Assembly: GCA_022072255.1 (NCBI GenBank)
Contig: JAJVHZ010000027.1
Span: 18,660-82,659, forward strand
Length of the DNA: 64,000 nt
Direction: 5' to 3'
Source: Gammaproteobacteria bacterium
GTDB taxonomy: Bacteria; Pseudomonadota; Gammaproteobacteria; JAJPIJ01
In this document: in pieces, positions 128 to 34,660 of the stretch
Numbering within the stretch: the stretch's first letter is position 1
How the letters are laid out: each line of letters opens with the position of its first letter
The notes under the pieces: generated by a model
The model's database searches: none
What the model was told of the DNA's origin: nothing
Seen by the model: the letters and a program-made list of their open reading frames with translations, nothing else
Translations under genes and position numbers: made by a program

Positions 128-541
128 ATGATCCAAACAAAGACGGTCTCAAAGATAGCCAGATGGATTTTGGGTGTCTTTCTCCTGGTGGGGATGTTCT
201 GTCCTTGCCGGTGGTTCCCTCCCCATTCCCAATCGCCACATGCCATTGAGCGATTCTGTTGCCCAACCTGCGAAGACGAACAGAGGAGTGATCAGGAGGA
301 CTCCGGAAGCATCCCGGAGACGTGTGAAAGTGGCTGTTGCAGTTCCTGCCTAACCCCGGAGAGGGGGGGCAATTGGAGCCTGGATCATGCCACAACCTTT
401 CTCTCGGTTATCTGTGTTGTGCCTCTCGTTGAGTCCCTCGTTGCATTTTGTAAGCTGGCCCCATATCCCCTCCTACCTCTTGCTTCTCCTCCAATATATA
501 AAGGTTGCCCCTTCCCCAACCTGGGTTCTCTCCTGATCTGA
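128..541 (+). CDS. Cys-rich leader/upstream ORF (paralog 1 of 7)
   Basis: N-terminal hydrophobic stretch ending CPC, then CCPTCE and CESGCCSSC, Pro-rich linker, C-terminal LGSLLI; same layout as 8270-8680. Confidence 0.65.
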   Translation: MIQTKTVSKIARWILGVFLLVGMFCPCRWFPPHSQSPHAIERFCCPTCEDEQRSDQEDSGSIPETCESGCCSSCLTPERGGNWSLDHATTFLSVICVVPLVESLVAFCKLAPYPLLPLASPPIYKGCPFPNLGSLLI

Positions 542-634
542 ATCCCGCTCGTTACTTCCTCTTCATCCACAAGATAGCAGTAGTTATGACGCTTACAGGT
601 TTACCGCAATGGAAACCTGAAATAGGAGGAACAA

Positions 635-2683
635 ATGAGCAGCAATTTCAAAATCGCATTTGGAGTATCATTAGTGCTCCTGGTAATCGGTACGGCAGTG
701 ATCTTCGGTGCCCGTGATGTCAACGGATGGAACCATTTCAGTGGATTTGTTGCGAAAGCATTTGACCAGTTGTATATCGAAGCACTTGCGTCTGATCAAC
801 CCTCCACGGAGGCAACTGGAGACAGTTCTGGTGATTCAGCAGATGGAAAACCGGAGGACACCGCGGATTGGGACGTTGAATTGAGTTCAACGGTTCCCAA
901 TGTGGCGTTGCCAGAATTCGATGCAGGAAAAGTCGCGGAGTTCAAAGCCAAGGGAGATTGGTGTACCTCTCATAATGTGCCGGAGTCAATGTGCATTATG
1001 TGCAATCCAGACTTGATTCCAAGATTCAAGGGAACCGGTGATTGGTGCGCTGGTCATGGGGTTCCAGAATCGCTTTGCACTTCATGCAACCGGAAGTTGG
1101 CTGATCTGGGCATTGGATTCACTACGCCTCAAACGTCAGGGACCCATGATTCGGGCAGCCCCGAAACCCTCACGAAGGAGAAGCTTCAGGAGTTCAGGGC
1201 CAAAGGTGATTGGTGTACGGAGCACAACATCCCAGAGTCTCTCTGTACAAAATGCAATCAACAATTAGCGGCTGAATACAAGGCAAAAGGCGATTGGTGT
1301 GCGGAACACAAAGTCCCCGATTCACTTTGTCCAGACTGCAAACCGGCGATTGCTGCTCTCGGTATCGGAAGAGATTGGTGCGAGAAACACAATCTACCCG
1401 AGTCCCAGTGTGTCTTCTGCCATCCTGAACTGGCCCTTTCGAAATCACAACTGGCAATTTATGCCAATGCCGGATTGGACCTTGGTTTGTCGGGTGAAGG
1501 AATCTTGAAAAGTCTGGAGATGAGCATATCTCAGCACCTCCCGATTGCAGTGGAACCTATGGACGAACCAGACCAACGATTGGGAATCAATCCAAACTGC
1601 CATCTCCACGGCACGCAGATTCTGTTTGCATCCCCTGAGGTCGCGGGAGAAGTAGGGATCGCCGTGGTAGATGCGAAAATGGATCTCGTCACGGAGTCGT
1701 TACCCTGCTACGGGGAGGTTCAATATAACAAGAGCAGGTTTGTCTTGCTCTCCTCGAGGGCACCGGGGATCGTTGAATCTGTTCAAGGAGACCTCGGTGA
1801 TTCCGTGAAAAAGGGCCAGGTTGTAGCCATCATCGACTCGGCCGAACTGGGTGAGGCCAAAGCTGCTTTGCTTCGCGCACACTCGGAACGCAACCGTTGG
1901 AGTTGGGTTACCGAGTCCTATGAGAGTTCCAACGGGAGCGGGGCGATTTCCCGGAAAGACCTGGTCGAAGCCAAGGCCGCCTTAGCGGGGGCAAGTATCG
2001 AGGTCGATATTGCCGCTCAGAAACTTAGGAACTATGGCCTCGATGGAGAGATGCTGGAACAGATCGTTGAAAATCACAACACTTCCACCCTCCTTCCCGT
2101 AATGGCCCCATTCGATTCAACCGTGGTAGAGTTGAAAGCGGTTCCGGGTGAAGTTATCGAACGAGGTGGTCCCATCTTTGCGTTGGCCGACACATCAACG
2201 ATGTGGGCGATGTTAGACATTTTTGTGAGGGACCTCCCGAAGGTCAAGGAGGAAATGCCTGTTGTCTTTTCTCCCGACGGATTGGATGGACAAGTCTTTC
2301 ACGGGAAAGTCGATTGGATCGGTTCGCAGCTGGATGAGAAGACCCGAACTGCGAAGGTGCGTGCGATTCTACATAACCACGATGGCCAAATCCGTTCGGG
2401 TCTTTTTGGCAAGGGTGAAATCGCGCTTCACCAAAACGATGGGGTTCTTACCGTTCCGCGCGAATCTGTCCAGTGGGATGGTTGCTGCAATGTTGTGTTT
2501 GTGAAGAAGTCCGACGTGCTTTATCAACCTCGGAAGATTCGAATCGGCTATGCAACAGACGATAATTATGTCGTCGAGGCTGGCCTTATCTCAGGAGAGA
2601 GAATTGTAACAACGGGAAGTTATCTTCTCAAGACTGAAATCCTTAAGGGAAGCATCGGCGCCGGATGCACCTGCGGAGGCTAG
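635..2683 (+). CDS. czcB: HME-RND periplasmic adaptor (CzcB-like) with five N-terminal WCxxHxxPESxCxxC repeats
   Basis: SD AGGAGG; N-terminal TM segment; adaptor core (SRAPGIVESVQGDLGDSVKKG, LDEKTRTAKVR); directly upstream of czcA-type gene. Confidence 0.85.
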   Translation: MSSNFKIAFGVSLVLLVIGTAVIFGARDVNGWNHFSGFVAKAFDQLYIEALASDQPSTEATGDSSGDSADGKPEDTADWDVELSSTVPNVALPEFDAGKVAEFKAKGDWCTSHNVPESMCIMCNPDLIPRFKGTGDWCAGHGVPESLCTSCNRKLADLGIGFTTPQTSGTHDSGSPETLTKEKLQEFRAKGDWCTEHNIPESLCTKCNQQLAAEYKAKGDWCAEHKVPDSLCPDCKPAIAALGIGRDWCEKHNLPESQCVFCHPELALSKSQLAIYANAGLDLGLSGEGILKSLEMSISQHLPIAVEPMDEPDQRLGINPNCHLHGTQILFASPEVAGEVGIAVVDAKMDLVTESLPCYGEVQYNKSRFVLLSSRAPGIVESVQGDLGDSVKKGQVVAIIDSAELGEAKAALLRAHSERNRWSWVTESYESSNGSGAISRKDLVEAKAALAGASIEVDIAAQKLRNYGLDGEMLEQIVENHNTSTLLPVMAPFDSTVVELKAVPGEVIERGGPIFALADTSTMWAMLDIFVRDLPKVKEEMPVVFSPDGLDGQVFHGKVDWIGSQLDEKTRTAKVRAILHNHDGQIRSGLFGKGEIALHQNDGVLTVPRESVQWDGCCNVVFVKKSDVLYQPRKIRIGYATDDNYVVEAGLISGERIVTTGSYLLKTEILKGSIGAGCTCGG

Positions 2684-2686
2684 ACG

Positions 2687-5600
2687 ATGCTTTCACAAAT
2701 CATTGAATGGTCTCTGAACAACCGTCTCCTGGTTTTGTTTCTCAGTCTGCTGCTTGTGCTGACTGGGCTTTGGTCGCTAAAGGAACTGCCGATTGATGCT
2801 TTTCCGGACACGACTCCTGTTCAGATCCAGATCAACACGGTGACTCCGAGTCTCTCGCCGGAGGAAATCGAACAACAGGTCACTCTTCCAGTTGAATTGG
2901 CCATCTCCGGGCTGCCGGGACTGCACGTGGTCCGATCGGTTTCGAAGTTTGGATTCAGTCAAGTGATGGCAATATTTGATGACAGCATCGACATCTACTT
3001 GGCGCGCCAAGTCGTGAATGAACGGCTTCAAACGGTGCAGCTTCCAGTTGGAATACGACCACCCGAACTGGGGCCGGTCTCCACGGGGTTGGGAGAGGTA
3101 TTCCACTATGTGGTGTCCTCATCAAAACGGGATTTGACGGAGTTGAGAACGCTTCATGATTGGGTTGTCAAGCCCATTCTTCGCTCCGTTCCAGGTGTCG
3201 CCGAAATCAACTCCTGGGGTGGTTTTGTCAAGCAATACCAAGTCCTGGTCGATCCTTTGAGACTGCTGAAGTTCAATCTCGGAATGGATGATCTCAAGGA
3301 AGCCTTGGAAAACAACAATGCCACTATGGGTGGGGGCAACGTGATCCAGGCCGGTGAACAGGTGCTTGTTCATGGTGTAGGCCTGGTAACCACGATACCT
3401 CAGATCGAAAATATTGTGATCACCTCCCATGATGGAGTCCCGATTAAGGTCAGGGATGTCGCCGATGTCGAAGTGGGTCACGAAATCCGACGAGGCGCTG
3501 TCACGGCCATGGGCCAAGGCGAGGCTCTACTTGGTCTTGGGTTCATGCTCATGGGAGAGAACACTCGCATCGTAGCACAACGTCTTGAAGACCGTCTGGA
3601 GGAAGTGCGTCAAGCGCTTCCTCCAGACGTCAAGATCGATGTTGTATACAACCGCATGGACCTTGTCGATAGAGTTCTCCACACGGCCCGGAAGAACCTC
3701 TTCGAGGGCGCATTGCTTGTCATTGCGATTCTGTTTGCGCTCATGGGAAATTTACGAGCGGGCCTGATTGTCGCCCTTTCGATCCCTCTCTCAATGTTGT
3801 TTGCGTTCAATCTGATGCTTAAGGCGGGAATCGCCGGAAGCCTTCTCAGTCTTGGAGCCATCGACTTTGGTATTGTTGTGGATAGCTCTGTTATTATGGT
3901 GGAGAACTCCGTGAGGAGGATCGCCGAGAAACCTCCTGGGAGATCGTTCATCGACACCATCAAAACCGCCTCGCTCGAGGTCCGGAAGCCGACGCTCTTT
4001 GGAGAAGCAATCATCATGATCGTTTACCTTCCGATTCTGACCCTTGAAGGGGTGGAAGGGAAACTGTTCCGCCCCATGGCTCTGACCGTCATCTTCTGTC
4101 TTCTTGGCTCCTTGGTCCTTTCTCTGACCCTAATGCCAGTATTGGCCAGTTTGTTTCTACCCAAGAGGATAAAACATCGAGAGAATTTCATCCTTAGAGG
4201 GGTCAAGTTCATTTATGACCCACTTTTGAGATTGAGTATGAAAGCTCGGCCGCTTGTGCTCGGACTCTGCCTCCTTCTGCTTGCTATAACTATTAGGGTT
4301 GGAATGAACATCGGGACCGAATTCATTCCCGTACTCTCAGAAGGATCGATTGTGATCAATACTGTAAGGCTCGCGGGGGTTTCCCTTGAAGAGTCTATTC
4401 GCTATGGATCTCAAATTGAACAAACGATCCTCAGAAAGTTTCCGGATGAAGTCAATAAGGTATGGACACGCACAGGAACTCCGGAAATTACAACTGATCC
4501 CATGGGTCTGGAGGTTTCGGACATTTTTATGACGCTGAAACCCAGAGAAGAGTGGAAGAAAGCGTCTTCACAAGAAGAACTGGTTTCCGCTATGGGCACT
4601 GAACTCTCAACATTTCCAGGAATGAGGATGGTCTTTACTCAACCGATTGAAATGAGATTGGCAGAGATGACCGCAGGCGTCCGAGCCGAGCTCGGGGTCA
4701 AGGTCTTCGGGGATGATTTCCAAAAGTTGGCTTCTATTGCCCAGGAGATCGATGCATTGCTGAGGCGGATTCCTGGTGCATCGGATGTCTCAACGGAGCA
4801 ATTGACTGGGCAGCCTGTGTTTCAAGCAACGCTCGATCAGGAAGCGCTCGCACGCTATGGAATCCCTGGACGGGGAGTTCTTGAAATTATCGGATCTGTG
4901 GGAGGGCTTGAGGCCGGGGAAATTCGCGAGGGACAGAGGAGATTCGATCTCGTTGTTCGACTCAAAGAAGAATACAGAAGAAATCCTGACAGGATACGAG
5001 ATATCCTGATTCCGAACCCGAATGGGGCAAATCTCCCACTCAGTGAACTTGCCTCACTCCGATATATCGATGCGCCCTCGTCGATTCAACGGGAATGGGG
5101 AAAGCGAAGAATTACGATTCAATGCAACGTGCGAGAGCGTGATATAGGTTCTTTTGTTAAGGAAGCCAGACAGAAGATTTCGGAACAGGTGAGTCTGCCA
5201 ACGGGGTACTATATTGGTTTTGGAGGACAGTTCGAGCACATGGTAACCGCTCAGCAACGGCTAATTGTTGTTGTTCCACTTGCTCTTGGATTGATCTTCT
5301 TCCTTTTATACATGAGTTTCCATTCCGTCAGAGATGCAGTTCTCGTTTTATCGGGGATTCCCTTGGCTACCATTGGGGGAGTCTTCTCTCTGTACTGGAG
5401 AAATATTCCATTCACCATTTCTGCCGGTATCGGTTTCATCGCATTGTCCGGTATCGCTGTTTTGAATGGCCTTGTTATGGTGTCCTATATGAAGCAACTA
5501 ATGCAAGAAGGAGTCTCGCTCCAACAATCAGTTTACCAAAGCGCATTGGTCCGGCTTCGTCCAGTCCTGGCTACAGCAATCGTGGATGCAGTGGGTTTTG

Positions 5601-5764
5601 TTCCGATGGCTTTGTCCACGGACGTGGGTGCTGAGGTTCAACGTCCATTAGCAACGGTGGTGATTGGTGGGGTCATCTCCTCCACAGTTCTTACGCTATT
5701 TGTCCTGCCTGCACTATATTCCTTGTTTGGAAGAGACTTGAGTCGGGGCAAGACACAAGAATGA
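2687..5764 (+). CDS. czcA: HME-RND permease, CzcA/CusA family (CzcA-type)
   Basis: 1025 aa; IDAFPDTTPVQIQINT, GAIDFGIVVDSSVIMVEN, RLRPVLAT, EVQRPLATVVIGG. Confidence 0.92.
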   Translation: MLSQIIEWSLNNRLLVLFLSLLLVLTGLWSLKELPIDAFPDTTPVQIQINTVTPSLSPEEIEQQVTLPVELAISGLPGLHVVRSVSKFGFSQVMAIFDDSIDIYLARQVVNERLQTVQLPVGIRPPELGPVSTGLGEVFHYVVSSSKRDLTELRTLHDWVVKPILRSVPGVAEINSWGGFVKQYQVLVDPLRLLKFNLGMDDLKEALENNNATMGGGNVIQAGEQVLVHGVGLVTTIPQIENIVITSHDGVPIKVRDVADVEVGHEIRRGAVTAMGQGEALLGLGFMLMGENTRIVAQRLEDRLEEVRQALPPDVKIDVVYNRMDLVDRVLHTARKNLFEGALLVIAILFALMGNLRAGLIVALSIPLSMLFAFNLMLKAGIAGSLLSLGAIDFGIVVDSSVIMVENSVRRIAEKPPGRSFIDTIKTASLEVRKPTLFGEAIIMIVYLPILTLEGVEGKLFRPMALTVIFCLLGSLVLSLTLMPVLASLFLPKRIKHRENFILRGVKFIYDPLLRLSMKARPLVLGLCLLLLAITIRVGMNIGTEFIPVLSEGSIVINTVRLAGVSLEESIRYGSQIEQTILRKFPDEVNKVWTRTGTPEITTDPMGLEVSDIFMTLKPREEWKKASSQEELVSAMGTELSTFPGMRMVFTQPIEMRLAEMTAGVRAELGVKVFGDDFQKLASIAQEIDALLRRIPGASDVSTEQLTGQPVFQATLDQEALARYGIPGRGVLEIIGSVGGLEAGEIREGQRRFDLVVRLKEEYRRNPDRIRDILIPNPNGANLPLSELASLRYIDAPSSIQREWGKRRITIQCNVRERDIGSFVKEARQKISEQVSLPTGYYIGFGGQFEHMVTAQQRLIVVVPLALGLIFFLLYMSFHSVRDAVLVLSGIPLATIGGVFSLYWRNIPFTISAGIGFIALSGIAVLNGLVMVSYMKQLMQEGVSLQQSVYQSALVRLRPVLATAIVDAVGFVPMALSTDVGAEVQRPLATVVIGGVISSTVLTLFVLPALYSLFGRDLSRGKTQE

Positions 5765-6495
5765 AAAAGGGATTTATTGGAAGAGATAATTGTTGATACT
5801 ACAATCAAACCTGAGTAAGTGGGAGTGCGCATCCGATCACATGATCTTTGCAAGGCGGAGGTTGATTAGCTGCTATTCCTTTAATTTCCAAAGAAAACAC
5901 CGAGTCCGTGTTCGTATATGTCATAAAAGACACTCCCGAGAAGATATGGAGGGACATCATGATCGTGAGGAATCTGAATACCTATATGAACATTATTCCT
6001 ACACCGCATGCGCTGTCCACAACTCAGGTTGATTCACATTCTCATACTGATGTCAAAAATAAACCATATCCGGCTAACGGTGATACGATTGATGGGATAA
6101 CATCTAGCGAGTTGAATGGAATGATTGTGAGTTTCTTTCTTGAGTAATGCGTCGTGTTTATTACACAATTATCCGGAGACTGAAATGCGCATACTTTTAC
6201 CGAAAATAAAGGAAGTAAAGGTCGGAGGTGTTTCTAGTCGTGAGAATCTTGAAGGTCGACATGAGGTATCAGTTGACGAGTGGATGATTACAGATACATT
6301 GTTACAGCAATAGAACCTTTTGGATGGAACCAACTATGAAGTGGAGAATAGATGTTTCCGTGAGATTGACTGAAGACGTTACCCCAAACGTGGCTGATCG
6401 TTTATTTCCAATAGTGCTCACCGTATGGAATGGTAAGAAGATCTGGAGGCACTACAGATCGGTCAGTGACTGATAAGATCTGTCCGCAGGACGAC

Positions 6496-6975
6496 ATGCT
6501 CATGATCTCTCGGAGGTTATCCCTTTTCCTTTGTTTGGTTCTCCTTACTGGTCCAACCCCTGATATCTGCTGCTGTTGCCACACTGTCGATACCGAGTCC
6601 CACAAAACTTCTCCCAAGGCTTGGTTCGCTCAAACCTACACTCACCGCGACGTCTCGGGTTGTATCTGCTGTCAGATTCCCTCATCTGAACGAATGGGAT
6701 GCTGCGATTCGGGGGATTGTGTTCCATTCGACCCAACTGGTTGTAATTGCTGTGTAAGAGGACAGAACCCTGACAATCAGGGGACTCCACCCCCCAAGGC
6801 GTTGGAGAAAGGAACGAGTTCGAATCGCTTGCTGTTTCTTACAGCGATCCACTCGAACTTCAGTCGCGCTTATCTGGCCCGTGGCACCACCTCACCGCTT
6901 TTCGAGCAATCCCCTGATCCCTCCGGGTTTGCATATCACCCCCTGTTCTTACTCAATTACTCCATCCTTTGCTGA
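6496..6975 (+). CDS. Cys-rich leader/upstream ORF (paralog 2)
   Basis: Hydrophobic N-terminus, CCCCH, CICC, GCCDSGDC, CNCC; ends PLFLLNYSILC; same length (480 nt) as homolog 22383-22862. Confidence 0.7.
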   Translation: MLMISRRLSLFLCLVLLTGPTPDICCCCHTVDTESHKTSPKAWFAQTYTHRDVSGCICCQIPSSERMGCCDSGDCVPFDPTGCNCCVRGQNPDNQGTPPPKALEKGTSSNRLLFLTAIHSNFSRAYLARGTTSPLFEQSPDPSGFAYHPLFLLNYSILC

Positions 6976-7192
6976 ACCTCCTTTAGTTGAGGCCGCTCGG
7001 AAAGTCTGTCTACGCCACGAAAAGAGCTGCGCTGGATGATGATTCGCATGGCCTCACACTAATCCCAGAAACCCATTCCAACAGGATCAAATGACGTGCC
7101 CTACCGAGGCGCCCGCTCTCACCTCCCTTGTAGGCCGAGGGGCTGGCTCTCGAGTCGGGTCCGAACAAAGAGGTAACAAAGGAGGTTTCACC

Positions 7193-8101: not shown

Positions 8102-8233
8102 ATGAAACGGTACAAAGCGGGTCGTTCGATTACTCTCAACTTGCTTGTTGTGACGTTGACCACAGTCGCTCTGACTCTTGTCCCCAGCCAAGCGTTCGCC
8201 GGTGCCTACGTCCAGATCGGGGACAGAGATTGA
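8102..8233 (+). pseudogene. 43-aa signal-peptide-only ORF, probable truncated copy of the SGNH hydrolase gene
   Basis: Manual translation MKRYKAGRSITLNLLVVTLTTVALTLVPSQAFAGAYVQIGDRD*; N-terminus matches MKRYKTRNSITLNLLIV of 19739-21259. Confidence 0.5.
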
Positions 8234-8258
8234 CCGTGATCGCAGAATAGGATAACGT
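8230..8258 (+). promoter_or_regulatory. sigma70-like promoter of czc operon 2
   Basis: TTGACC (8230-8235), 17 nt, TAACGT (8253-8258); ATG 8270 lies 11 nt downstream. Confidence 0.55.
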
Positions 8259-8680: not shown

Positions 8681-8776
8681 TCCTTTCTCCTTAGGTCTCA
8701 ACGAGATTGAGTCACAAGAAGATTTGCGTGTCTCGCATCCAAGATGCGAAGCCAAGAATCGACAAGGAGAATAAAC

Positions 8777-22167: not shown

Positions 22168-22382
22168 GGAATAACCTCCTTTGTTTTTCCCTGCTCCAAA
22201 CCGAGTCGGAACACCTTTCGTTCAACCGGCAGATGGCTTGGGAGCTGGCGTCTCCGCGTGGAGGCCTAATGCTCTTGCCAATATGGATTTCGACGATTGG
22301 TGCGAGCCCGTGCGATAAGTTATCTGACGCCACCTAGATTGCGGCAGAGACAGACTTCTCGAGCGGTTTCAACTGAGGAGGT

Positions 22383-22862
22383 TCAGCGAAGAATGGAGTG
22401 GTTGACTAAGAACCGTGGCGAATATGGAAAGATGAAACTACCCGAGGACTCATCGAACAGAGATGGGGTGGTACCCCTGGCCAGGAAATCCCCACAAAAC
22501 GTTGAGTAACCTGCCATCAAGGACTGCAGACGATTCGAAATCGTTTCGTTCTCTGACGCCTTTGGGGGTAGAGTGCCGTGATTGATTGGATTCTGTTCTC
22601 TTAGGCTGCAATTGCAGGCATTTGGCCCGAATGAAACACATGACCCCGAATCACAGCAGCCCATGCGTTCAGAGGAGGGCATCTGACAGCAGGTACGACC
22701 CGAGTGTTCGCAGCGAGAGCAGGTTGGAGCGCGCAAGGAATCGGGAGACTTATTGTGGGACTCGGCATCGGCCGTGGGGCAACAGCAGCAAATCGCGGGG
22801 ATCGGGCCGAGAAGCAGGACCAGACAAAGAAAGGAGACCACTATCCGATTCATCATTGGCAT
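22383..22862 (-). CDS. Cys-rich leader/upstream ORF (paralog 4)
   Basis: ICCCCP, CSRCE, CCQMPSSERMGCCDSGSC; ends FLVNHSILR; homolog of 6496-6975. Confidence 0.7.
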   Translation of the reverse strand: MPMMNRIVVSFLCLVLLLGPIPAICCCCPTADAESHNKSPDSLRAPTCSRCEHSGRTCCQMPSSERMGCCDSGSCVSFGPNACNCSLREQNPINHGTLPPKASENETISNRLQSLMAGYSTFCGDFLARGTTPSLFDESSGSFIFPYSPRFLVNHSILR

Positions 22863-23175
22863 ACGTAACTGTGGATGAATGTTGCCGGTTAATAACTGAT
22901 TCCCCACATCTTTCCTTTTCACCACCACCATCTCACAGGAAGGTTTCCACAAGCACGAAACGATTAGCCATGTTCGAAGTAACGATCGATCACAGGCTGT
23001 CGGGTACACGGACCCATATTGCTGTCAAGATTTTCGCGGAAGGCCTGTACCCTTTACGTGTCCTTGCCGAGAAGACCCGGCGGTGTTGTCAGATTCGTCC
23101 TCCCATCGAGAAACGGGACAGGAGGGTTGGGCCCATCCAACCAGATACTCCCTGATTAGGTCGAGTCTGATCTGT

Positions 23176-25523: not shown

Positions 25524-25766
25524 CAGAGATTAACTCCTCTTCTGGGTATCTGTTGCATGGATGAAATCCGAACTCCCGTCAAAGAAGCCATGCTTGCATG
25601 ACGGGGCTCTCGGATACGATGAGGGGACCTGGGATTGTGAGGACACCCGTCCGGCGGTTTCACCACGGACAGACGGCCAGACAGTCTACCAGCATCGAAT
25701 CGGTCACGTGGGATCGCAATTCGGATCCAGCTGGACAGGCCTCTCCCCTCATCGTAGCGGGGGGGG

Positions 25767-26219: not shown

Positions 26220-26365
26220 AGTCCCTATTCAACGTTACCCATTGAGTGATGAGACGTCAACCATCGCGCCAGTACCGACAAGTGGAACCATACCTGTGGA
26301 GGAGAGTGAAGAGAAAAGATGGGCATTCCACCCGCCCTCGATGCCCTTCAGCCAACGGGTGCAAC

Positions 26366-26623: not shown

Positions 26624-26703
26624 TGCTTTGTTCTCCTTTCTGCCAAATAAGGCCTTGCAGCGCAAGGCCAATGTGAGCATCTTTCAATATGATCCGAAAT
26701 CCT

Positions 26704-29700
26704 TCATGTTTGTGTTCCCGTTCGAGCAATATCCTTCATATCTGTCCGCAGGATCCGGAGCTTGTAGATGGCGGGGTAGACCAACAGCTCGAGGATGAAT
26801 GAAGTCGCTAAGCCGCCGATCATCGGTGCGGCGATCCGTTTCATCACATCCGCTCCCGCCGAATTAGACCACATGATGGGCAGCAAGCCCATGAACGCTG
26901 CGGCAACCGTCATCATCTTGGGACGGGCGCGTTTGACTGCTCCGTGAAGGATGGCAGCATCCAGCTCCTTGAGGTTCGTTAGGCGTCCTGCCTTCTTGGC
27001 CTCTTCATAAGAGAGGTCCAGGAACAAGAGCATGAAAACACCGGTCTCCGCATCCAAGCCCATCAAGGCGATCATGCCCACCCACGCAGCTATCGACACA
27101 TTGTAGTCGAGAAAGTAGAACAACCAGACGGCACCAATAACGGAGAAAGGTACGGCCAGCATGACAACCGTCGTCTTGAAGGCCGAACCTGTGTTCGCAA
27201 ACAGAAGGATGAAGATCAGCGCGAGAGTGATTGGGACCACCAGCTTAAGGCGCTCTCGCACACGCAACATGTTTTCGTACTGCCCGCTCCATTGCAGGAC
27301 ATAGCCGGGCTTCAAATCAAGTTTTTCTTGTACAACCCGCTTGGCTTCCTCCACATAACTTCCGATGTCGCGTCCCGTAATGTCAACGTAGACATACCCG
27401 GCCAGGAATCCGTTTTCGTCCCGGAGCATTGCAGGACCTTGCAACACCTTGATGTCAGCCAGCTGTGCCAAGGGAACCTGGGCGCCCACCGGTGTGGGGA
27501 CCAGGACACGCTGTAGATGGTCGATATCGTCGCGCAACTCCCGTGGATACCGGACGTTGACCGGGTAGCGTTCACGGCCTTCGATGGTTGTTGTGATGTT
27601 CTCGCCTCCGATGGCGCTGCTGATGATCATCTGGACCTGTTCGATGGTCAGTCCGTACCTCGCAAGTTGTTCGCGCCGAGGTTCGAAATCGACGAAGTAC
27701 CCTCCCGCCACACGTTCGGCAAAGACGCTACGCGTTCCAGGGATCTCACGTACAATGGATTCAAGCTCCTCTCCGATCCTCTCGATCTCAGTTAGGTCGG
27801 ACCCGAATATCTTGATCCCGATTGGTGTCCGCACACCAGTTGAAAGCATATCGATACGCGCTTTGATTGGCATGGTCCAGGCATTGGTGGTGCCAGGGAT
27901 CTTAAGGGCCTTGTCCATCTCCGTTACCAGTTCGTCCCATGAGATGTGTTCCGGCCAGATCCTCCGCAGGAAGGGTTTCAGCCACTCAGGAGCAGTCTTG
28001 GAATACCACTGATCCTTAGCTCGCCACTCGTCCTCCGGTTTGAGGATCACGGTGGTTTCCATCATGGAGAAGGGTGCCGGATCGGTGGAGGTATCCGCGC
28101 GTCCCGCCTTGCCGAAGACTCGTTCCACTTCGGGAAAGCCGCGAAGGACCTTGTCTTGTGTCTCCAGGAGTTCCCGTGCCTGGGTAACTGAAATACCTGG
28201 AAGAGTGGTGGGCATGTAAAGGATGCTCCCCTCATTGAGGGGTGGCATGAATTCCGAGCCGAGTTTGAAATACGCCGGAAGACTGGCGAGGACGAGTGCG
28301 ATGGCGAGAAAAATTACCGTTTTGGGGAACCGTAGGACGAGCTTGCAGGCGGGTTCGTAGAAAAAGAAGATTATGCGGCTGATTGGATGACGTTCCTCAG
28401 AGTAGTATTTTCCTACGAAGACGCGAGTCATCAGCCACGCCAACCAGCGCGGACGGAAGGCGAAAGGATCCATCCGGGTGAAGAGCATTCGCAAGGCGGG
28501 ATCAAGCGTGATGGCCAGAATTGCTGCAATCGCCATCGCCAAGTTTTTCGAGTAGGCCAATGGCTTGAAGAGGCGTCCCTCCTGGTCAACCAGAGCGAAG
28601 ATCGGGAGAAAGGCAACGGCGATCACGAGGAGCGAGAAGAAGACCGATGGACCGACCTCTTTGAGCGCCTCAAGCCGGACTTCATGAAAGTCGCCTTTTC
28701 TCCCCTCCGCCTGCCAATGATAGAGTTTGTTGTAGGCATTTTCGACCTCGACAATTGCGCCATCCACAAGGACTCCGATAGAAATGGCGATTCCCGCAAG
28801 CGACATGATGTTCACGGTCAAACCCATGTAGTAGAGAGGGATGAACGCCACCAAGACCGACACCGGGATCGTCACGATGGGCACGATGGCCGAAGGGATG
28901 TGAAAGAGGAAAAGGAGAATGACGAAGGAAACGATGATCATCTCGATGGTCAGCTCGTGCTTGAGCGTCTCCAGCGCCCGAGTGATGAGATCGGCACGAT
29001 CATACGTGGTAACAATCTCTACCCCCTTCGGGAGAGATGGCGCAAGATCCTTGATCTTTTCCTTGACCCGGTTAATCACATTGAGGGCATTCTCTCCATG
29101 GCGCATGATAACGATCCCGCCGACGGCGTCTCCATTCCCATCCAGGTCGGAGATTCCCCGCCGGATTTCGGGCCCCAGCTCAACACGAGCAATATCACCC
29201 AGGTGAACAGGAATGCCTCCTTCGCCGACTTTCACCACGATTTGCTCGAAGTCTGAAAGGGATTTCGCGTATCCCTTCCCACGAACCATGTACTCCCGTC
29301 CGCTCCACTCCAGGAGACGCCCTCCCACCTCGTTGTTGGAGCTGCGAATTGCGTTCACAACTTCATCCAGGGGAATCTGAAATGCAGCAAGGCGGTTGGG
29401 ATCAACCGTGACCTGGTACTGTTTGACAAACCCACCGATCGAGGCAACTTCAGCTACTCCGGGAACCGACTGGAGAGCGTAGCGCAGCGTCCAATCCTGG
29501 TAGGATCTCAGCTGATCAAGGGAATGCTCACCTGAGTGGTCCACGAGCGCATACTGGAAGACCCAACCGACACCCGTCGCATCAGGGCCAAGCTCAGTCT
29601 GGACCCCCTGAGGAAGACGCGACTGGATCTTGGACAGGTATTCGAGGACTCGGGAACGAGCCCAATACATGTCGGTTCCATCCTGAAAGATCACATAGAC

Positions 29701-29973
29701 ATAGGAGAACCCGAAGTCGGAAAAACCACGGATGGCCTTCACCTTGGGCGCACCCAGCAGCGCGGTAATGATTGGGTAGGTGACCTGATCCTCAAGAATG
29801 TCGGGCGAGCGGTCCCACTTGGAGAAGACGATGACCTGGGTATCCGAAAGATCGGGCAACGCATCCAGGGGAATCTCCCCCAGGATGTACACCGCGATAG
29901 CCGAGACGGCGACAACGCCCATGAGAACCAGGATCCGGTTCTTAGCGCAGAATTCGATTATTTTCTGGATCAT
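26704..29973 (-). CDS. cusA: CusA/SilA-type Cu(I)/Ag(I) RND permease
   Basis: LDALPDLSDTQVIV, DPAPFSMMET, RIDMLSTG, RARPKMMT, MKRIAAPMIGG. Confidence 0.92.
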   Translation of the reverse strand: MIQKIIEFCAKNRILVLMGVVAVSAIAVYILGEIPLDALPDLSDTQVIVFSKWDRSPDILEDQVTYPIITALLGAPKVKAIRGFSDFGFSYVYVIFQDGTDMYWARSRVLEYLSKIQSRLPQGVQTELGPDATGVGWVFQYALVDHSGEHSLDQLRSYQDWTLRYALQSVPGVAEVASIGGFVKQYQVTVDPNRLAAFQIPLDEVVNAIRSSNNEVGGRLLEWSGREYMVRGKGYAKSLSDFEQIVVKVGEGGIPVHLGDIARVELGPEIRRGISDLDGNGDAVGGIVIMRHGENALNVINRVKEKIKDLAPSLPKGVEIVTTYDRADLITRALETLKHELTIEMIIVSFVILLFLFHIPSAIVPIVTIPVSVLVAFIPLYYMGLTVNIMSLAGIAISIGVLVDGAIVEVENAYNKLYHWQAEGRKGDFHEVRLEALKEVGPSVFFSLLVIAVAFLPIFALVDQEGRLFKPLAYSKNLAMAIAAILAITLDPALRMLFTRMDPFAFRPRWLAWLMTRVFVGKYYSEERHPISRIIFFFYEPACKLVLRFPKTVIFLAIALVLASLPAYFKLGSEFMPPLNEGSILYMPTTLPGISVTQARELLETQDKVLRGFPEVERVFGKAGRADTSTDPAPFSMMETTVILKPEDEWRAKDQWYSKTAPEWLKPFLRRIWPEHISWDELVTEMDKALKIPGTTNAWTMPIKARIDMLSTGVRTPIGIKIFGSDLTEIERIGEELESIVREIPGTRSVFAERVAGGYFVDFEPRREQLARYGLTIEQVQMIISSAIGGENITTTIEGRERYPVNVRYPRELRDDIDHLQRVLVPTPVGAQVPLAQLADIKVLQGPAMLRDENGFLAGYVYVDITGRDIGSYVEEAKRVVQEKLDLKPGYVLQWSGQYENMLRVRERLKLVVPITLALIFILLFANTGSAFKTTVVMLAVPFSVIGAVWLFYFLDYNVSIAAWVGMIALMGLDAETGVFMLLFLDLSYEEAKKAGRLTNLKELDAAILHGAVKRARPKMMTVAAAFMGLLPIMWSNSAGADVMKRIAAPMIGGLATSFILELLVYPAIYKLRILRTDMKDIARTGTQT

Positions 29974-29985
29974 GGCTACGCGCTC

Positions 29986-31548
29986 CTAATGGGAGTGTCC
30001 ACCCTTATCGGAGGCTCCGGAAAAAGCGGCCTGAAGGCGTGATTCGGAATCGAGCAGGAAATTCGCCCGGGTTACTACACTCTCCCCAGGCTGGATACCA
30101 TCAAGGATCTGGGCCTTCCCTACGTCGCGGATTCCGACTTTCACCTTGCGCGGCTCAAACCGGCCTTTCCCCAGGTCGACAAAGACGATTTTCCTCTGGC
30201 CGCTATCCATCACCGCCGAATCCGGGATGACCACACCCTCGGTGGCTTCTACCTGCAGATCAACATTGACGTACATGGAGGGTTTGAGGAGGAGGTTGGG
30301 GTTGTCCATCTCGAACCGCACTTTGAGGGTCCGGCTCTCAGGATTCAGGGTCGGGCTAATGTAGGAGACGGTGCCGGTCGTTTCCGGGATCGTCCCATAG
30401 GGCATGCTAAAATTGGCCTGCTGTCCAAGTTTCACAAAGGTTGCCTCATACTCATAGATGGCCGCTTCAATCCAGATGTGCGAGAGGTCCGTAACTGTAA
30501 ACAGCTCCATACCCGGTTCCACCTGCTGCCCCTCGAATACCTCCTTGGCGCCGATGAAGCCGGAGGACGGAGCGGTGAGCGTTACGCTCTTCCGAATCTT
30601 CCCGGATTTCTCGAGTTCTTCGATGAATGTCTCCGGGACATCAAAAAGCTGCAACCGGTATCGAGCTGTCTTGACCAAATCCACTTCGGTCTTCATGAAT
30701 TCCGGTGAGTCTACACCCCCTACTTTCCCGATGCGTTCACGGACTGTCAGATATTCCTGTTGGCTGGCTACGAGCTCCGGCGAGTAAATTGACAGAATGG
30801 GAGAGTCCTTCTCCACCCACTGACCTGTGAAGTTGGCTTCGAGCTTCTCAATCCAACCTGAGATCTTTGTGTGCACATGCCGGACGAGGGTTTCATCAGG
30901 TGTGACGTAGCCAACGGTTCGGATGGTTCGAGCCAGATGTTCCTGAGTCGCTGTGGCAACCTGAATCCCCGCCAGCCGAAGTCCATCATTCGAAACCGTG
31001 ATGGGAACAAGACCCTCCACATTGGTGCCGGTTTGACTCGGTATCTCATCCGAGTAGACCGCCACATAATCCATCCCCATCTCATCCTTCATGGGTACAG
31101 GTGAGGTCACTTCGGGGTTCATGCGATTCCGGTAGAAGAGGATCTTCCTATCCCCCGGAGCGACCGGGGATCCGGTGGAATGCGAGCCGTCGGCATGACC
31201 CGTTCCGGGGCTTTCCGCAGGTGGAGTGTTGTCTGGTTCCTCCATCGGTTCCAGGTTCATCCCACACTTGGGACATTTGCCGGGTTTGTCGGAGACAACT
31301 TCGGGATGCATGGGGCAAGTATATTTTGTTCCCTCGGTGGGGGCTTTCTCCTTTTCCATTGGGACCAGTCGCATCCCGCAGATGGGACAGTCCCCCGGCC
31401 GGTCCGTGATGTAAGTGGGGTGCATGGGGCAGAAATACTTCTCCGCTGCCTTGTCGCCTCGGTTACACCCTATGATGAGTACAACGACTGCAAAGGCTAC
31501 AATTGGTGCCAGAGAGAACGATCTTAAGTCAGTTGACGCTTTCATCAT
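29986..31548 (-). CDS. cusB: CusB-type adaptor with N-terminal heavy-metal-binding (YxCPMHP) domains
   Basis: YFCPMHP..CPICGM, YTCPMHP..CPKCGM, FYRNRMNP..KDEMGMDY, YSPELVASQQEY; SD GAGGAG before 31548. Confidence 0.88.
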   Translation of the reverse strand: MMKASTDLRSFSLAPIVAFAVVVLIIGCNRGDKAAEKYFCPMHPTYITDRPGDCPICGMRLVPMEKEKAPTEGTKYTCPMHPEVVSDKPGKCPKCGMNLEPMEEPDNTPPAESPGTGHADGSHSTGSPVAPGDRKILFYRNRMNPEVTSPVPMKDEMGMDYVAVYSDEIPSQTGTNVEGLVPITVSNDGLRLAGIQVATATQEHLARTIRTVGYVTPDETLVRHVHTKISGWIEKLEANFTGQWVEKDSPILSIYSPELVASQQEYLTVRERIGKVGGVDSPEFMKTEVDLVKTARYRLQLFDVPETFIEELEKSGKIRKSVTLTAPSSGFIGAKEVFEGQQVEPGMELFTVTDLSHIWIEAAIYEYEATFVKLGQQANFSMPYGTIPETTGTVSYISPTLNPESRTLKVRFEMDNPNLLLKPSMYVNVDLQVEATEGVVIPDSAVMDSGQRKIVFVDLGKGRFEPRKVKVGIRDVGKAQILDGIQPGESVVTRANFLLDSESRLQAAFSGASDKGGHSH

Positions 31549-31613
31549 GCTTCTCCTCTGCTTTCCTTTTCGCATTGGTCCCGGTGGAACAAAGAGCTTT
31601 ACTGGGATATACC

Positions 31614-31862: not shown

Positions 31863-32134
31863 GGCGCAATTCCTCGATTCTTTAACCATTTAGATCCATC
31901 ACACTTGCCTCTGAAAAATCCTGACAAAGCGGCAGACTGTGTTGGATGGTGATCTCGCAGCCTCCTCACTCTTGTCCAACCGCGGAAGGATGAACGAACT
32001 CAGAGATGGGATACCGGGTTACTTACGTTTTGGCTCAAAGATGGAGAAGTCTGTGATCCCGAGTAAACCTCAGGCATTAGAACTCGTCTTGCCTGGTGTT
32101 CAGTGGACAGACCTATCGCGTCGATTGGAGTGAT

Positions 32135-32524
32135 TCAACACCTGAATGAACTATCGAGTAGATACAAGGGAGTGCTGCCAGAGCACGGCAGTAGCCATTC
32201 CACCTCTGAGGGTGAATAGGCCTGAGAGGATACTTCCACAACTGTGCCAAGGCCGGTTGGAATGATTGCCCCGAGCACGTTGTCATCAGCTCTTTCAGCT
32301 GGCCGCGGGGCTGGTACGGTTGGTTGAGGGGATTCCGCCTCGGTACAGCCGCACATGCACGGCCCACTATCAGACCCATCGCAGCAACCGCAGCCACACA
32401 TCCCCTTGTTATCATCGTTGGGACTGGGATCTGTGCCAGCCAAGTATTGAGCACAGGAGCACTCTGCCAACGGAAAGGCAAGCACCAGCGAAAAAATAAG
32501 GATCAGGCTCGCATAGCGTCTCAT
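32135..32524 (-). CDS. Cys-rich leader/upstream ORF (paralog 6)
   Basis: Signal-like N-terminus ending CSC; CGCGCCDG, CMCGC; ends PLYLLDSSFRC; promoter TTGACA-17-TAGCTT at 32567-32539. Confidence 0.68.
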   Translation of the reverse strand: MRRYASLILIFSLVLAFPLAECSCAQYLAGTDPSPNDDNKGMCGCGCCDGSDSGPCMCGCTEAESPQPTVPAPRPAERADDNVLGAIIPTGLGTVVEVSSQAYSPSEVEWLLPCSGSTPLYLLDSSFRC

Positions 32525-32587
32525 GATTCTCTAAGGAAAAGCTACAAACACATTCCTTCCATGTCAATAAGAACGTTTGTGGTTCTC

Positions 32588-33154
32588 CTAACGCAACGTT
32601 GGGACCTCATCACGGTCCCGTCGCTGCATCAGGCTTGAGATCAAGCCGATTCGCATATCCATGGACTGATTCCGGACACAACCGACTAAAACAGGCACCA
32701 CATGCTTGTCCATCTTGGCCAGGATGTCGATGGTCGACCACAGCAGGTCTGGGTCCGAAAGCAGGCAGATGATCTTCCTCACGACGGGTTCACCAATCCG
32801 AATCAGCGTATCTATCGCTTTCTCAACGATGTCTCGTTCGGCACTCCGGAGTTGACTGATCAGGTCATCGATGAGGTGAGGGAAATCGGAATGGACAAAG
32901 AAGTGAGCTGCTATGGCGACTCGCCACAGGTCACCGCTTCTATACCAGGCCATCATCTCCTCCGCAGCATGTTCCAGAGGCAGTTTCAACAGAACATCCA
33001 GTAGGTCCGTCGGATCTTCGCTTAGAGTGCCATATCCAAGGCCTCCTCCCAGTGTCGGATTCCCTTTCCACAATTGCGTCACAGGTCTTCGTCTTTCGAG
33101 CCTAACAAACGGCACATGTTTTTTTTCGACAACTGTATTATTGGTTCTTAACAT
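32588..33154 (-). CDS. hypothetical helical protein, WYRSGD family (copy 3, divergent)
   Basis: SD AAGGAG; WYRSGDLWRVAIAAHFF, IGEPVVRKII, MDKHVVP. Confidence 0.7.
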   Translation of the reverse strand: MLRTNNTVVEKKHVPFVRLERRRPVTQLWKGNPTLGGGLGYGTLSEDPTDLLDVLLKLPLEHAAEEMMAWYRSGDLWRVAIAAHFFVHSDFPHLIDDLISQLRSAERDIVEKAIDTLIRIGEPVVRKIICLLSDPDLLWSTIDILAKMDKHVVPVLVGCVRNQSMDMRIGLISSLMQRRDRDEVPTLR

Positions 33155-33246
33155 TTGAGACTCTCCTTTGTCTGCAGTCTTACAAGCCCCGCATCCCATG
33201 GATGGGGCGTATTCTAGGTTTCTCAGTTCACGTCTTCATGGATTCC

Positions 33247-33915
33247 TCAGAGCCAAAAATGCTGCTGGCTATCAATCCCGGGCCACACCAAGATCGTCTC
33301 CGGTGGATTCAATGCGTGAAACGGTGGCATCTGTCGTGGCATTGAAAACGTTATCGTTTCTCCTTCTTGATTGGCCTTGAGCCTACGAAGCGCTAAGTCA
33401 GGATCTCTCAGGAAGGAGTTGATGCAATTCTCACAATGGAAGTGGAAGATCACACCATTGTACTCAATCCTTACCTTAGAGAATGCCTGCCTCATTGGCG
33501 CCACCGGACAGAAATTGTTCTGAAGGTCAATGGGTGTCTCAGGCCAGCCTGTCCGCTGATTCATTCGGTAGGCTTTCATATAAGTCCCAGAAAGATTCAT
33601 GGCTGCTTCGTCTTTGCAGGCTTCACAGCAGAGGTAGAGCCGTCCTGCAAGGTTTCGTTCCTTATCCTGATAATCAAGGTAGATCTCCGGATCGATGGGC
33701 TGTTTCGTGACAGGACACAAGCGATTCCCATTGACAGGTGGGGTCTTTCCAGTCTGGAGACCAGGTGTTCCAGAATCAATTTGACGATGGTCACTCATGC
33801 CACCCTCAGGATTGATTCGTTTGTCCTTCGAGAGCTCCGCTTGTGAATATAACGTCGCGATCAAGACTCCGAGTGATAGCGCTAACGTGCTAACCGTTTG
33901 AGCGATAGTTTTCAT
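33247..33915 (-). CDS. exported Cys-rich double YHS-like protein (copy 3)
   Basis: SD AAAGGAG; GNRLCPVT..YLCCEAC..QNNFCPV..EYNGVIFHFHCENC. Confidence 0.68.
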   Translation of the reverse strand: MKTIAQTVSTLALSLGVLIATLYSQAELSKDKRINPEGGMSDHRQIDSGTPGLQTGKTPPVNGNRLCPVTKQPIDPEIYLDYQDKERNLAGRLYLCCEACKDEAAMNLSGTYMKAYRMNQRTGWPETPIDLQNNFCPVAPMRQAFSKVRIEYNGVIFHFHCENCINSFLRDPDLALRRLKANQEGETITFSMPRQMPPFHALNPPETILVWPGIDSQQHFWL

Positions 33916-34186
33916 GTTGAATTGTCTCCTTTCTCTTCTCCCGTCTCTCCTCACAGGACATACATACGGTGAGGTCCAACGACTTTTACTTGTCGGCTTC
34001 CCGACCCTTCCTGTCTGAATCTCGCGCTGCGCTAGACATGCTCAGACCGGTGGATGGATCAGGGCGTTACCTTACTGGACTCTGTGTGTCGTGGTGGTGC
34101 GAAAAGATTGTTGACCGAATGGAAAATCCTCAGCTGACGTAGATGCTAAAGAAGGATTCCTCTCGGATCAGGTGGAGTGGAAAGGG

Positions 34187-34660
34187 TCAACACTGAATGG
34201 AATGGTTGGTAATGTAGCGTGAAAGACCAGAGGGGTGGAAAACACAGTCGATGTAACTCGGTGCTGAAAGACGGTACCCTGCGACCAATGGGATTCCGCT
34301 GACAGGGCTGGAAAGCAGATCCAACACCCTTGGGAACCTTTCGGACTCGGATTCACTTCCCGGCACGGATGATTGAGCCTGACCTGATGTATCACCGTTG
34401 AGACAGCAACGGCAGGATGCGTTCCCGTTTGCCTGATCCGAGCAACTCACGAGGAACCCCGTATCCGATCCGGCATGGCTGTCCTCGCAACAAGAGGGGC
34501 AGGCATGGCTGGTTTCACCTATTCCCTCAGTACCACAGCAACCAGCCACACCATCTGCCGCGCGAATCGGGGAAGTGCCCGAATGGTTGCACAGGCACAG
34601 ACGAGGTGTCAGGCCGACAAGCAGAACCACGGAAAGTAAACTGGAGATCAGCTTTCTCAT
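34187..34660 (-). CDS. Cys-rich leader/upstream ORF (paralog 7)
   Basis: Signal-like N-terminus ending CLC; GCCG, CPSCC, CRCC; ends RYITNHSIQC; promoter TTGACT-16-TATCAT at 34697-34670. Confidence 0.68.
   Translation of the reverse strand: MRKLISSLLSVVLLVGLTPRLCLCNHSGTSPIRAADGVAGCCGTEGIGETSHACPSCCEDSHAGSDTGFLVSCSDQANGNASCRCCLNGDTSGQAQSSVPGSESESERFPRVLDLLSSPVSGIPLVAGYRLSAPSYIDCVFHPSGLSRYITNHSIQC

Follow-up and report, generated by a model that had tools for sequence, protein, structure and literature searches.

Candidate metal-sensing leader peptides ahead of efflux operons in a gammaproteobacterial metal-resistance cluster

To our knowledge, post-transcriptional metal sensing by a nascent exported upstream open reading frame (ORF) has been shown experimentally only in CutF and CruR, both of which belong to DUF2946 and use proline-based stalling. 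Here we describe seven Cys-rich leader ORFs, labelled A to G, in a metal-resistance cluster of an uncultured gammaproteobacterium (GTDB lineage JAJPIJ01). They lie in a 64,000-nt stretch of DNA, hereafter the window (GenBank assembly GCA_022072255.1, contig JAJVHZ010000027.1, positions 18,660 to 82,659 of the forward strand). CruR (Bp2923 of B. pertussis, DUF2946) combines a CXXC motif with a C-terminal RAPP arrest motif three residues from its end; a region of C in excess of G (C>G bubble, or rut site) reaches from the end of the ORF into a 162-nt spacer, and Rho terminates transcription once copper has lifted the arrest. The CruR product was described as poorly structured (PMC9426467). In the case of CutF from Rhodobacter capsulatus, copper on the exported nascent chain prolongs stalling, and the stem-loop that hides the Shine-Dalgarno (SD) sequence of cutO melts (bioRxiv 10.1101/2022.11.11.516240, 10.1101/2025.02.05.636593). 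Its authors estimated that ~30 residues reside in the ribosome tunnel and ~17 across the membrane, with 45 residues between the motifs of CutF. They also listed 5,334 'CutF-like' proteins, most often ahead of genes for outer-membrane efflux proteins (OEP), RND pumps, CusB or CusF, and CzcI is among these without a proline motif.

Our seven ORFs are not DUF2946 members. Neither these nor 15 family members gave a match to the DUF2946 hidden Markov model (HMM), a check that the first-pass annotation of this DNA had proposed, or to any other Pfam model (hmmscan, E <= 10). The seven ORFs had no match in NCBIfam and the leader ORFs none among PDB sequences (E <= 1), and CusF, CopK, PcoE/SilE, SmtA and similar proteins did not appear among family-profile (Pfam, NCBIfam) or PDB matches. 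Yet the architecture, the context and the predicted RNA logic are the same as in DUF2946 leaders, and judged by sequence the ORFs form an unrelated family, joined by a second pair, and bring a candidate arrest motif that is new. We propose that they are cis-acting, co-translationally exported metal sensors, functional analogues of CutF, CruR and CzcI with a new tail motif, whose output would be SD unmasking (A to D) or Rho or an alternative fold (E to G). We consider this proposal to have an even chance of being right. Its basis is the conserved motif, the UGA stop, the promoters, the composition of the RNA past the stop codon and predicted helices that outperform shuffled sequences.

ORF A (128-541, plus strand; 137 aa, 12 Cys) has a Pro-rich tail and ends in LGSLLI before TGA, and ORF C (8270-8680, plus strand; 136 aa), of the same type, ends in LNALLI before TAG. 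The other five have a different ending, always followed by TGA: PLFLLNYSILC in ORF B (6496-6975, plus strand; 159 aa, or 181 aa if the start is at 6430), RFLVNHSILR in ORF D (22383-22862, minus strand; 159 aa, possibly longer), PYLSNHSFRC in ORF E (25767-26219, minus strand; 150 aa, 18 Cys; PPPYLSNHSFRC-TGA), PLYLLDSSFRC in ORF F (32135-32524, minus strand; 129 aa) and RYITNHSIQC in ORF G (34187-34660, minus strand; 157 aa). The coordinates, endings and sizes (129-159 aa) reported in the first-pass annotation were thus reproduced from the ORF translations. The second ATG of E is the conserved start and would give 149 aa, and possible starts of B and D lie 22-23 codons further upstream. A, C and F (and E, if 149 aa) are shorter than 150 aa; B, D and G have 157-159 aa. 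For CutF-like proteins, a length below 150 aa goes together with a metal-homeostasis gene downstream on the same strand, at most 1000 nt away.

The same annotation had treated the seven ORFs as one family. Our comparisons instead separate two groups: five homologues (B, D, E, F and G) and the pair formed by A and C, whose relationship to the five is not demonstrable by sequence. B and D are paralogues (57% identity) to which E, F and G are joined by a shared profile, and A and C are 30-32% identical. A link between A/C and the five was not upheld: blastp, hmmsearch (E = 0.16 and 2.3 against 1,364 ORFs) and hhalign (probability 10.8%) showed nothing beyond marginal, non-significant similarity at the N-terminus. 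Orthologue and paralogue pairs of leader ORFs gave dN/dS values of 0.18-0.43, with omega < 1 in all pairs; on these values the ORFs are real coding genes, clearly under purifying selection. They evolve faster than CusA (0.02), CusB (0.10) and CopA (0.14).

The layout noted in the first-pass annotation (hydrophobic N-terminus, Cys clusters, Pro linker and conserved end) is present throughout. Every ORF starts with an n-region of 3-12 residues (charge +1 to +3), a 13-residue hydrophobic core with a Kyte-Doolittle mean of 1.9-3.3, and a Gly/Pro turn. By charge and hydrophobicity, this region is predicted to be a Sec-type signal of the sort that characterizes CutF-like proteins. A lipoprotein reading was rejected because the first Cys is not preceded by a lipobox. 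The metal-binding motif of CutF-like proteins has its counterpart in 10-18 Cys per window ORF (8-18 across all members), arranged in CC, CxC, CxxC and CxxxC clusters with five invariant Cys columns in a 15-sequence alignment. A Pro-rich linker and a poorly conserved stretch separate these clusters from the conserved end. The last cluster lies 66-74 residues from the C-terminus (63-64 in A and C). We give this 63-74-residue 'ruler' light weight because the N-terminal part of the sequences is also fairly constant in length, except in F. AlphaFold built no structure apart from a helix at the N-terminus (pLDDT of 51 for E, from 15 input sequences, and of 39 for A), and the polypeptides are predicted to be intrinsically disordered beyond it.

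The tail of the five-member family has the consensus P-x-[YF]-L-x-N-H-S-I-x-C and always stands directly at a UGA stop. The tails of distant members, all at the stop codon, are PLFLSILTIRC, PLYLSNHSLQC, PTYLLDHSIRC, PIYLSNHSILC, PIYLSTHSILC and PLFLLHRSIRT. These proteins (numbered P0012-16, P0018 and P0019) are only 20-30% identical to the others and have kept the signal peptide, the five Cys columns and the tail. Exceptions to the final Cys are D, which ends in R, and P0018, which ends in T. The codons of the motif vary synonymously (TAT/TAC, CTC/CTA/CTG/TTA, TCC/TCA/TCT, TGT/TGC), so that selection on it acts at the peptide level. All 14 family members with DNA available use TGA, compared with 16 of 31 other genes in the window (52%). 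The RA[PG]P motif is absent from every member, as the first-pass annotation had stated for RAPP, and only E and its close relatives have PP among their final 15 residues.

Five of the ORFs (A, C, E, F and G) are followed by metal-homeostasis genes, in agreement with the claim that each heads a metal operon; B and D do not fit it and precede HEAT-like proteins of unknown function. Behind A on the plus strand lies the first of three heavy-metal efflux (HME) RND systems, with a membrane fusion protein (MFP, 635-2683) and an RND pump (2687-5764). Behind C, also on the plus strand, are the MFP (8744-10594) and RND (10598-13693) genes of the second system, a YHS-protein gene and an OEP gene (14753-16105). 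F precedes a heavy-metal-binding-domain (HMBD) lipoprotein gene and the third system, consisting of CusB (29986-31575) and CusA (26704-29973), and E a YHS gene (24918-25523) and the second OEP gene (23176-24666), all on the minus strand. The HEAT-like gene after B has its likely start at 7193, and the one after D lies at 21508-22167 (minus strand). G is located downstream of the gene for a CopA-type ATPase, copA (34720-37038, minus strand), not ahead of it, and is followed by a YHS gene (33247-33954) and a HEAT-like gene (32588-33199).

Each Cys-rich ORF seems to open an operon of its own. Promoter-like sequences of the form TTGAC-N16-18-TAnnnT, without an SD between promoter and ATG, had been reported before five ORFs and were found again before A, C, E, F and G (8-15 nt from the start). 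On the plus strand, TTGACA-N18-TACCAT (90..119) ends 8 nt before the ATG of A and TTGACC-N17-TAACGT (8230..8258) ends 11 nt before that of C. On the minus strand, TTGACG-N17-TAACGT (26232..26260) lies 12 or 15 nt before the ATG of E, past a terminator-like hairpin after cusA. Also on this strand, TTGACA-N17-TAGCTT (32539..32567) ends 14 nt before that of F, and TTGACT-N16-TATCAT (34670..34697) ends 9 nt before that of G, in the short spacer after copA. Across the 64 kb and both strands, the pattern occurs at 11 sites, compared with ~8 by chance, and 5 of the 11 are in leader positions. Relative loci in other assemblies (L001, L006, L010, L011, L012, L016 and L018) were available for comparison. 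The site of G is conserved in L012, where the hexamers of F are also kept and the spacer has diverged. More generally, the hexamers stay 6-15 nt before the ATG in L012, L010, L011 and L016 despite divergence of the spacer between them, a phylogenetic footprint that marks the promoter as real and implies mRNAs with little or no leader.

A simple promoter scan found no promoter-like site in the spacers after E, F and G, so that the downstream genes are probably co-transcribed with them. B and D lack the TTGAC/TAnnnT promoter. Upstream of both (~6375-6405, plus strand; ~22960-22990, minus strand) and in the relatives L018 and L006, we observed a conserved ~30-nt block, CGTTACyyCrArCrTGGCTrATCGTTT. 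This block may be a promoter or operator of another type. Near-leaderless promoters are not special to the leader ORFs, since copA has one too: its ATGACA-17-TATGCT (37045-37073, minus strand) ends 6 nt before the ATG, and an SD is absent. This organism may commonly begin its operons with near-leaderless cistrons.

The RNA immediately past the stop codon is distinctive in composition. Its first 15 nt are 73% pyrimidine, compared with 44% for 31 other genes (p = 4e-5), and in six of the seven ORFs, as in loci from Omnitrophota, the stop codon lies within a C>G bubble (C-G of 0.18-0.27 over 78 nt); only 3% of background coding-strand windows reach a C-G value of 0.17 (p = 3e-4). For four ORFs and for L001F, folding predicts base pairing between the post-stop tract and the SD of the following gene. 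After A, GCUCGUU and CUUCCUCUU (547..563) would pair with the start codon and with the SD AGGAGGAA (624-631) of the MFP gene, respectively, and the fold of the whole intergenic region has z = -3.5. In B, GAACCUCCUUU (6974..6986) overlaps the stop codon, and its predicted pairing with AAAGGAGGUUUC (7177-7188), the SD of the HEAT-like gene, closes a helix of 10 bp. UUUCUCCUU past the stop of C (8684..8692) pairs with the SD AAGGAGAA (8765-8772) of the MFP gene, whose likely ATG is at 8777. In the intergenic region after D (22173..22383, minus strand), AACCUCCU (22376-22383) closes a helix with the SD AGGAGGUU (~22173-22180) of the following gene. The closing helix of A, B, C and D is found in both the minimum-free-energy and the centroid structure, with 7.6-9.9 expected base pairs in the ensemble, and none of 60 composition-preserving shuffles reached the pairing observed for B and D. 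Masking the stop codon and 13 nt raised the predicted SD accessibility from 0.35 to 0.78 in C and from 0.31 to 0.54 in D.

Downstream of E, F and G, and in the Omnitrophota loci, a pyrimidine tract is followed by a GGGAGAGGUCUGUCC-like purine block ~20-24 nt past the stop and by long hairpins in spacers of 215-272 nt. The 243-nt spacer after E (25524..25766, minus strand) contains a C8 tract, then GGGAGAGGCCUGUCC and a long hairpin; that after F (31863..32134, minus strand; 272 nt) has a hairpin ~20-95 nt past the stop; and that after G (33916..34186, minus strand; 271 nt) has the pyrimidine tract CCCUUUCCACUCCACCU, then GAGAGG and a hairpin, with a C-G skew of +0.27 around the stop. The hairpin stretch after F is 77% identical to L012, compared with ~51% at 4-fold sites of flanking genes. 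Searched alone in the window, GGGAGAGGTCTGTCC had 4 matches vs 3.4 expected, and only its position after stop codons is notable. A four-region attenuator (post-stop tract, GAGAGG, CUUCUC, SD) was also considered: alternative pairings occur in several loci, and the model was rejected because in F the third region and the SD lack complementarity. We also observed in two Omnitrophota spacers (L010, ~4050-4140; L011, ~2195-2285) a long hairpin in which about four ATGGAA units face about four TTCCAT units and which is much better conserved than 4-fold sites in flanking genes.

Taken together, these features suggest the following mechanism. The Cys-rich ORF would be the first to be translated on an operon mRNA with little or no leader, giving a short, disordered, Sec-targeted polypeptide that would act in cis on its ribosome, and its Cys clusters would bind soft metals (Cu/Ag, or possibly Zn/Cd). 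With the ribosome at the tail motif (the Pro-rich ...LLI tail in A and C), the Cys clusters would be at least 63-74 residues behind the peptidyl-transferase centre. By the tunnel and membrane lengths estimated for CutF, they would have cleared the ribosome and SecY and lie in the periplasm by the time the stop is reached. Metal occupancy of the clusters could then change how long the ribosome dwells at or beside the stop codon, and the dwell time would control the RNA immediately 3' of it. In A, B, C and D, the post-stop tract would be the 5' arm of an SD-hiding helix, and ribosome occupancy would turn the next gene on, as in CutF and SecM. In E, F and G, where the SD is unmasked, the C-rich, G-poor tract and the structured spacer of 240-270 nt would fit Rho access or control by an alternative fold, as in CruR and TnaC. 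We infer that the UGA, the C-rich tract and the TnaC-like spacer length of these three fit Rho or alternative-fold control better than SD unmasking.

A bolder version of this proposal seems to us possible, though less likely than not. It would make P-x-[YF]-L-x-N-H-S-I-x-C-UGA a new metal-responsive termination or elongation arrest peptide, sensing through exported Cys clusters of the tethered chain, with two outputs in one cluster (SD unmasking in B and D, Rho or an alternative fold in E, F and G). A and C would then be an independently evolved second solution, and the whole would be the first such family outside DUF2946, on leaderless mRNAs and confined to a rare uncultured lineage and Omnitrophota.

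Several points weigh against a sensor function. Stalling, export, metal binding and the direction of regulation are all deduced by sequence analysis, and the tail motif bears no resemblance to known arrest sequences. SD masking by the post-stop tract is absent in E, F, G, L012F, L010 and the Omnitrophota loci and is not conserved among F orthologues. Where it is predicted, a closing helix beside the stop codon would also yield plain translational coupling without a regulated pause. No compensatory base changes were found, either in the F hairpin, whose three orthologues are too conserved, or in a cross-paralogue alignment, which had no consensus fold. Part of the C>G bubble is due to the G-poor codons of the motif itself, and conservation of the intergenic region after G is confounded because the adjoining YHS gene has recently recombined (dS 0.135). 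Proteins of 129-159 aa with 10-18 Cys hold more metal ligands than a sensor needs, as would fit a metal-binding product. In metatranscriptomes, the region was present in four RNA runs as low-depth assembled contigs, with neither transcript ends nor a coverage step, and DNA carry-over is possible. The earlier suggestion of cis-acting metal-sensing leaders gains in silico support from the tail at UGA, the post-stop tract, SD pairing in A to D, disorder and the CutF-like context, but not from E, F and G as regards SD masking.

The main alternative, which we consider possible though somewhat improbable, is that the ORFs encode stable exported Cys-rich metal-binding proteins that serve, for example, as a periplasmic buffer, or as a chaperone for the YHS/HMBD proteins and RND pumps. 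The tail would then serve the mature protein (in partner or membrane binding, or as a terminal Cys ligand), and the helix would mediate translational coupling only, with no regulated arrest and no nascent-chain sensing. CC and CxC clusters reminiscent of metallothioneins, with 10-18 Cys of which five are invariant in 15 members, agree with such a role, as do purifying selection comparable to that on other accessory genes, the promoter of each ORF, the constant pairing with YHS/TRASH or HMBD metal-binding proteins and the unmasked SD of E, F and G; disorder is likewise expected of apo-metallothioneins. On the other hand, a metal-binding protein would have to be one without a match to known metal-binding families (Pfam, NCBIfam, PDB), and the half after the Cys clusters is poorly conserved except for a motif that always ends at the stop codon. 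Such a reading also leaves unexplained the pyrimidine tract, the C>G bubble, the uniform UGA and the conserved 215-272-nt spacers, which differ from the tight spacing elsewhere in these operons. The sensor proposal and a metal-binding function are not mutually exclusive.

Far less probable is a reading in which the conservation reflects nothing but RNA or DNA elements (operators for a trans regulator, e.g., of the ArsR type, or a riboswitch-like leader), with translation absent or irrelevant. Conserved non-coding blocks do exist, namely the GGGAGAGGTCTGTCC-like sequence ~20 nt past the stop, the hairpin after F and the 30-nt block upstream of B and D, and an ArsR-family gene is present. Yet omega is below 1 in all pairs, the motif is kept as amino acids despite synonymous codon changes, and homologues of 20-30% identity retain the signal peptide, Cys positions and tail; Rfam gave no match at E <= 1 (bases 1-38000 of the window), and neither a consensus structure nor covariation was found. 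Finally, reading S-x-x-C-UGA as recoding (selenocysteine or readthrough, giving a Cys-Sec pair) or as the end of a precursor resembling ribosomally synthesized and post-translationally modified peptides (RiPPs), with Ser cross-linked to the terminal Cys, has hardly any credibility: UGA does occur in 14 of 14 members with DNA, usually directly after Cys, and a hairpin follows the stop, but the in-frame extension past UGA differs in length and sequence from one paralogue to another, the last residue is R in D and T in P0018, Rfam detected no selenocysteine insertion (SECIS) element, no modification enzymes are encoded among the scanned neighbours, and the N-termini are Sec signal peptides, not RiPP leaders.

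The B/D/E/F/G family is, as far as our sequence searches indicate, very rare. An exhaustive HMMER scan of 1.84 billion cluster representatives recovered 12 clusters, and only close relatives came up when 5.8 billion proteins were searched by word index. For A and C, the indexed protein search and a metagenome scan gave just the window's own copies. The family alignment was too variable to serve as a query against the genome collection; the HEAT-like neighbour, used in its place, led to one syntenic metagenome-assembled genome (MAG), L012. The plasmid collection gave no matches. Some distant members come from MAGs of Candidatus Omnitrophota, where they are annotated as 'hypothetical protein' and are followed by a YHS/HMBD/TRASH protein, OEP, MFP and RND genes.

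The surrounding region also encodes three paralogous YHS/TRASH proteins, three paralogous HEAT-like proteins and one HMBD lipoprotein. On the minus strand, the order is copA; G-YHS-HEAT-like; F-HMBD-cusB-cusA; a terminator-like hairpin; E-YHS-OEP; D-HEAT-like. The hairpin (26651-26669, minus strand), GC-rich with a T-rich tail (TTATTT) and directly past cusA, looks like an intrinsic terminator that parts the F-HMBD-cusBA unit from the E unit. The order copA-G-YHS-HEAT-like-F-HMBD-cusB-cusA recurs in closer relatives. Between the window and L012, the YHS gene after G (L012 4010-4726) has a dS of 0.135, compared with 0.9-1.4 for G, F, cusB and copA, which suggests recent recombination between lineages inside the cluster at this gene. 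The three HEAT-like paralogues (7193-7852 on the plus strand and the two on the minus strand given above) and that of L012 (4774-5385) share an invariant WYRSGDxW and have a weak Pfam HEAT_2 match alone. They always stand beside a Cys-rich ORF or a YHS protein, and a scan for WYRSGDxW in one genome per species (185,579 species) found one related locus.

The first-pass annotation had also cited a lack of regulators as an argument for leader control. This argument fails, because the window contains an ArsR/SmtB-family helix-turn-helix gene (18108-18464, minus strand) and a partial histidine kinase, and because 64 kb cannot exclude regulators elsewhere. The ArsR/SmtB gene stands beside PNP_UDP_1 phosphorylase-like, DsrE-like and S-adenosylmethionine (SAM) methyltransferase genes (16353-18464) in what may be a separate metalloid-responsive unit. 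The histidine kinase (18926-19564, minus strand; 212 aa) has HAMP and HisKA only. A 275-aa relative in L006 (6172-6999) additionally carries HATPase_c, and truncation or a misread end may explain the shorter copy in the window. Further along, 38000-58000 shows strong strand asymmetry, with GC skew between +0.2 and +0.4 and AT skew between -0.2 and -0.4 across most of its ~20 kb. Its plus-strand products include an FtsK/HerA-like ATPase, a Ser/Thr kinase that combines zinc ribbons with TPR repeats, and a WD40 protein. This part has no tandem repeats, and many long ORFs there have no Pfam match; the long minus-strand ORFs may be artefacts of a T-poor strand. The stretch 60109-63509 (minus strand) contains genes for an ArdC-like anti-restriction protein and a relaxase-like (Replic_Relax) protein. 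The metal-resistance cluster probably sits on a conjugative element. This DNA recurs, with 95-100% of sampled words present, in a large number of metagenomes of wastewater, sludge and bioreactors that stem from separate studies.

If the leader ORFs are indeed nascent-chain sensors, a family unrelated in sequence with the same architecture would imply that the strategy evolved more than once and that nascent-chain metal sensing is not tied to proline stalling. It would also mean that a multi-operon resistance island (three RND pumps plus accessory genes) can be run without a dedicated transcription factor per operon. The family offers a compact new candidate arrest motif at a UGA stop that is directly testable in vitro, and a rule by which annotators may recognize such leaders, which are labelled 'hypothetical protein' in public records. 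Should the ORFs encode metal-binding proteins, they would be a new type of periplasmic Cys-rich metal-binding protein, of more modest interest.

Among described systems, CutF is the closest analogue, and it had been overlooked in the first-pass annotation, which proposed a wholly distinct class; the ORFs are better seen as a variant of the CutF/CruR/CzcI theme. Like CutF, they are small first cistrons with a Sec-type signal, candidate Cys metal-binding motifs, a conserved C-terminal element and a product predicted to be disordered, they stand directly upstream of OEP, RND, CusB or CusF genes, and a stem predicted to hide the SD has one arm near the leader stop (here in A, B, C and D). They differ in having no DUF2946 HMM match, 10-18 Cys in place of one CxxxC, spacers of 215-272 nt in five of seven cases (mostly < 100 nt in the CutF group) and a near-leaderless mRNA. 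Their tail is P-x-Y-L-x-N-H-S-I-x-C and not Pro-rich, and the published CutF-like filter would have missed all but the E type because only there is PP found in the last 15 residues.

With CruR, our ORFs share an upstream position, Cys motifs, a C-terminal (here candidate) arrest motif near the stop, a C>G bubble across the ORF end and the start of a long intergenic region, and a poorly structured product (here by prediction). CruR, however, has CXXC plus RAPP and belongs to DUF2946, whereas these ORFs have neither RAPP nor a DUF2946 match; CruR also acts independently of its signal peptide and controls a TonB-dependent importer via Rho, a role that base composition alone suggests here. CzcI of Cupriavidus metallidurans is likewise a small exported ORF without a C-terminal Pro motif, ahead of the HME-RND operon czcCBA, and a proposed metal-sensing regulator, with no sequence similarity detected to our ORFs (Pfam, NCBIfam). 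TnaC, the leader of the E. coli tna operon, arrests at a UGA stop, with a rut site beside the stop and a ~220-nt spacer before the regulated gene. E, F and G resemble it in their UGA, the C-rich tract at the stop and spacers of 243-272 nt. Unlike them, TnaC has 24 residues, is cytoplasmic and senses free tryptophan in the tunnel, and it shares no signal peptide, Cys clusters or sequence similarity with them. SecM, MifM and VemP, lastly, combine an exported N-terminus, a C-terminal arrest element and an SD-masking stem opened by the stalled ribosome, a layout like the one proposed here. Those leaders sense export pulling force through unrelated motifs and regulate secA, yidC2 or secDF, in contrast to the metal-efflux genes that follow the ORFs described here.

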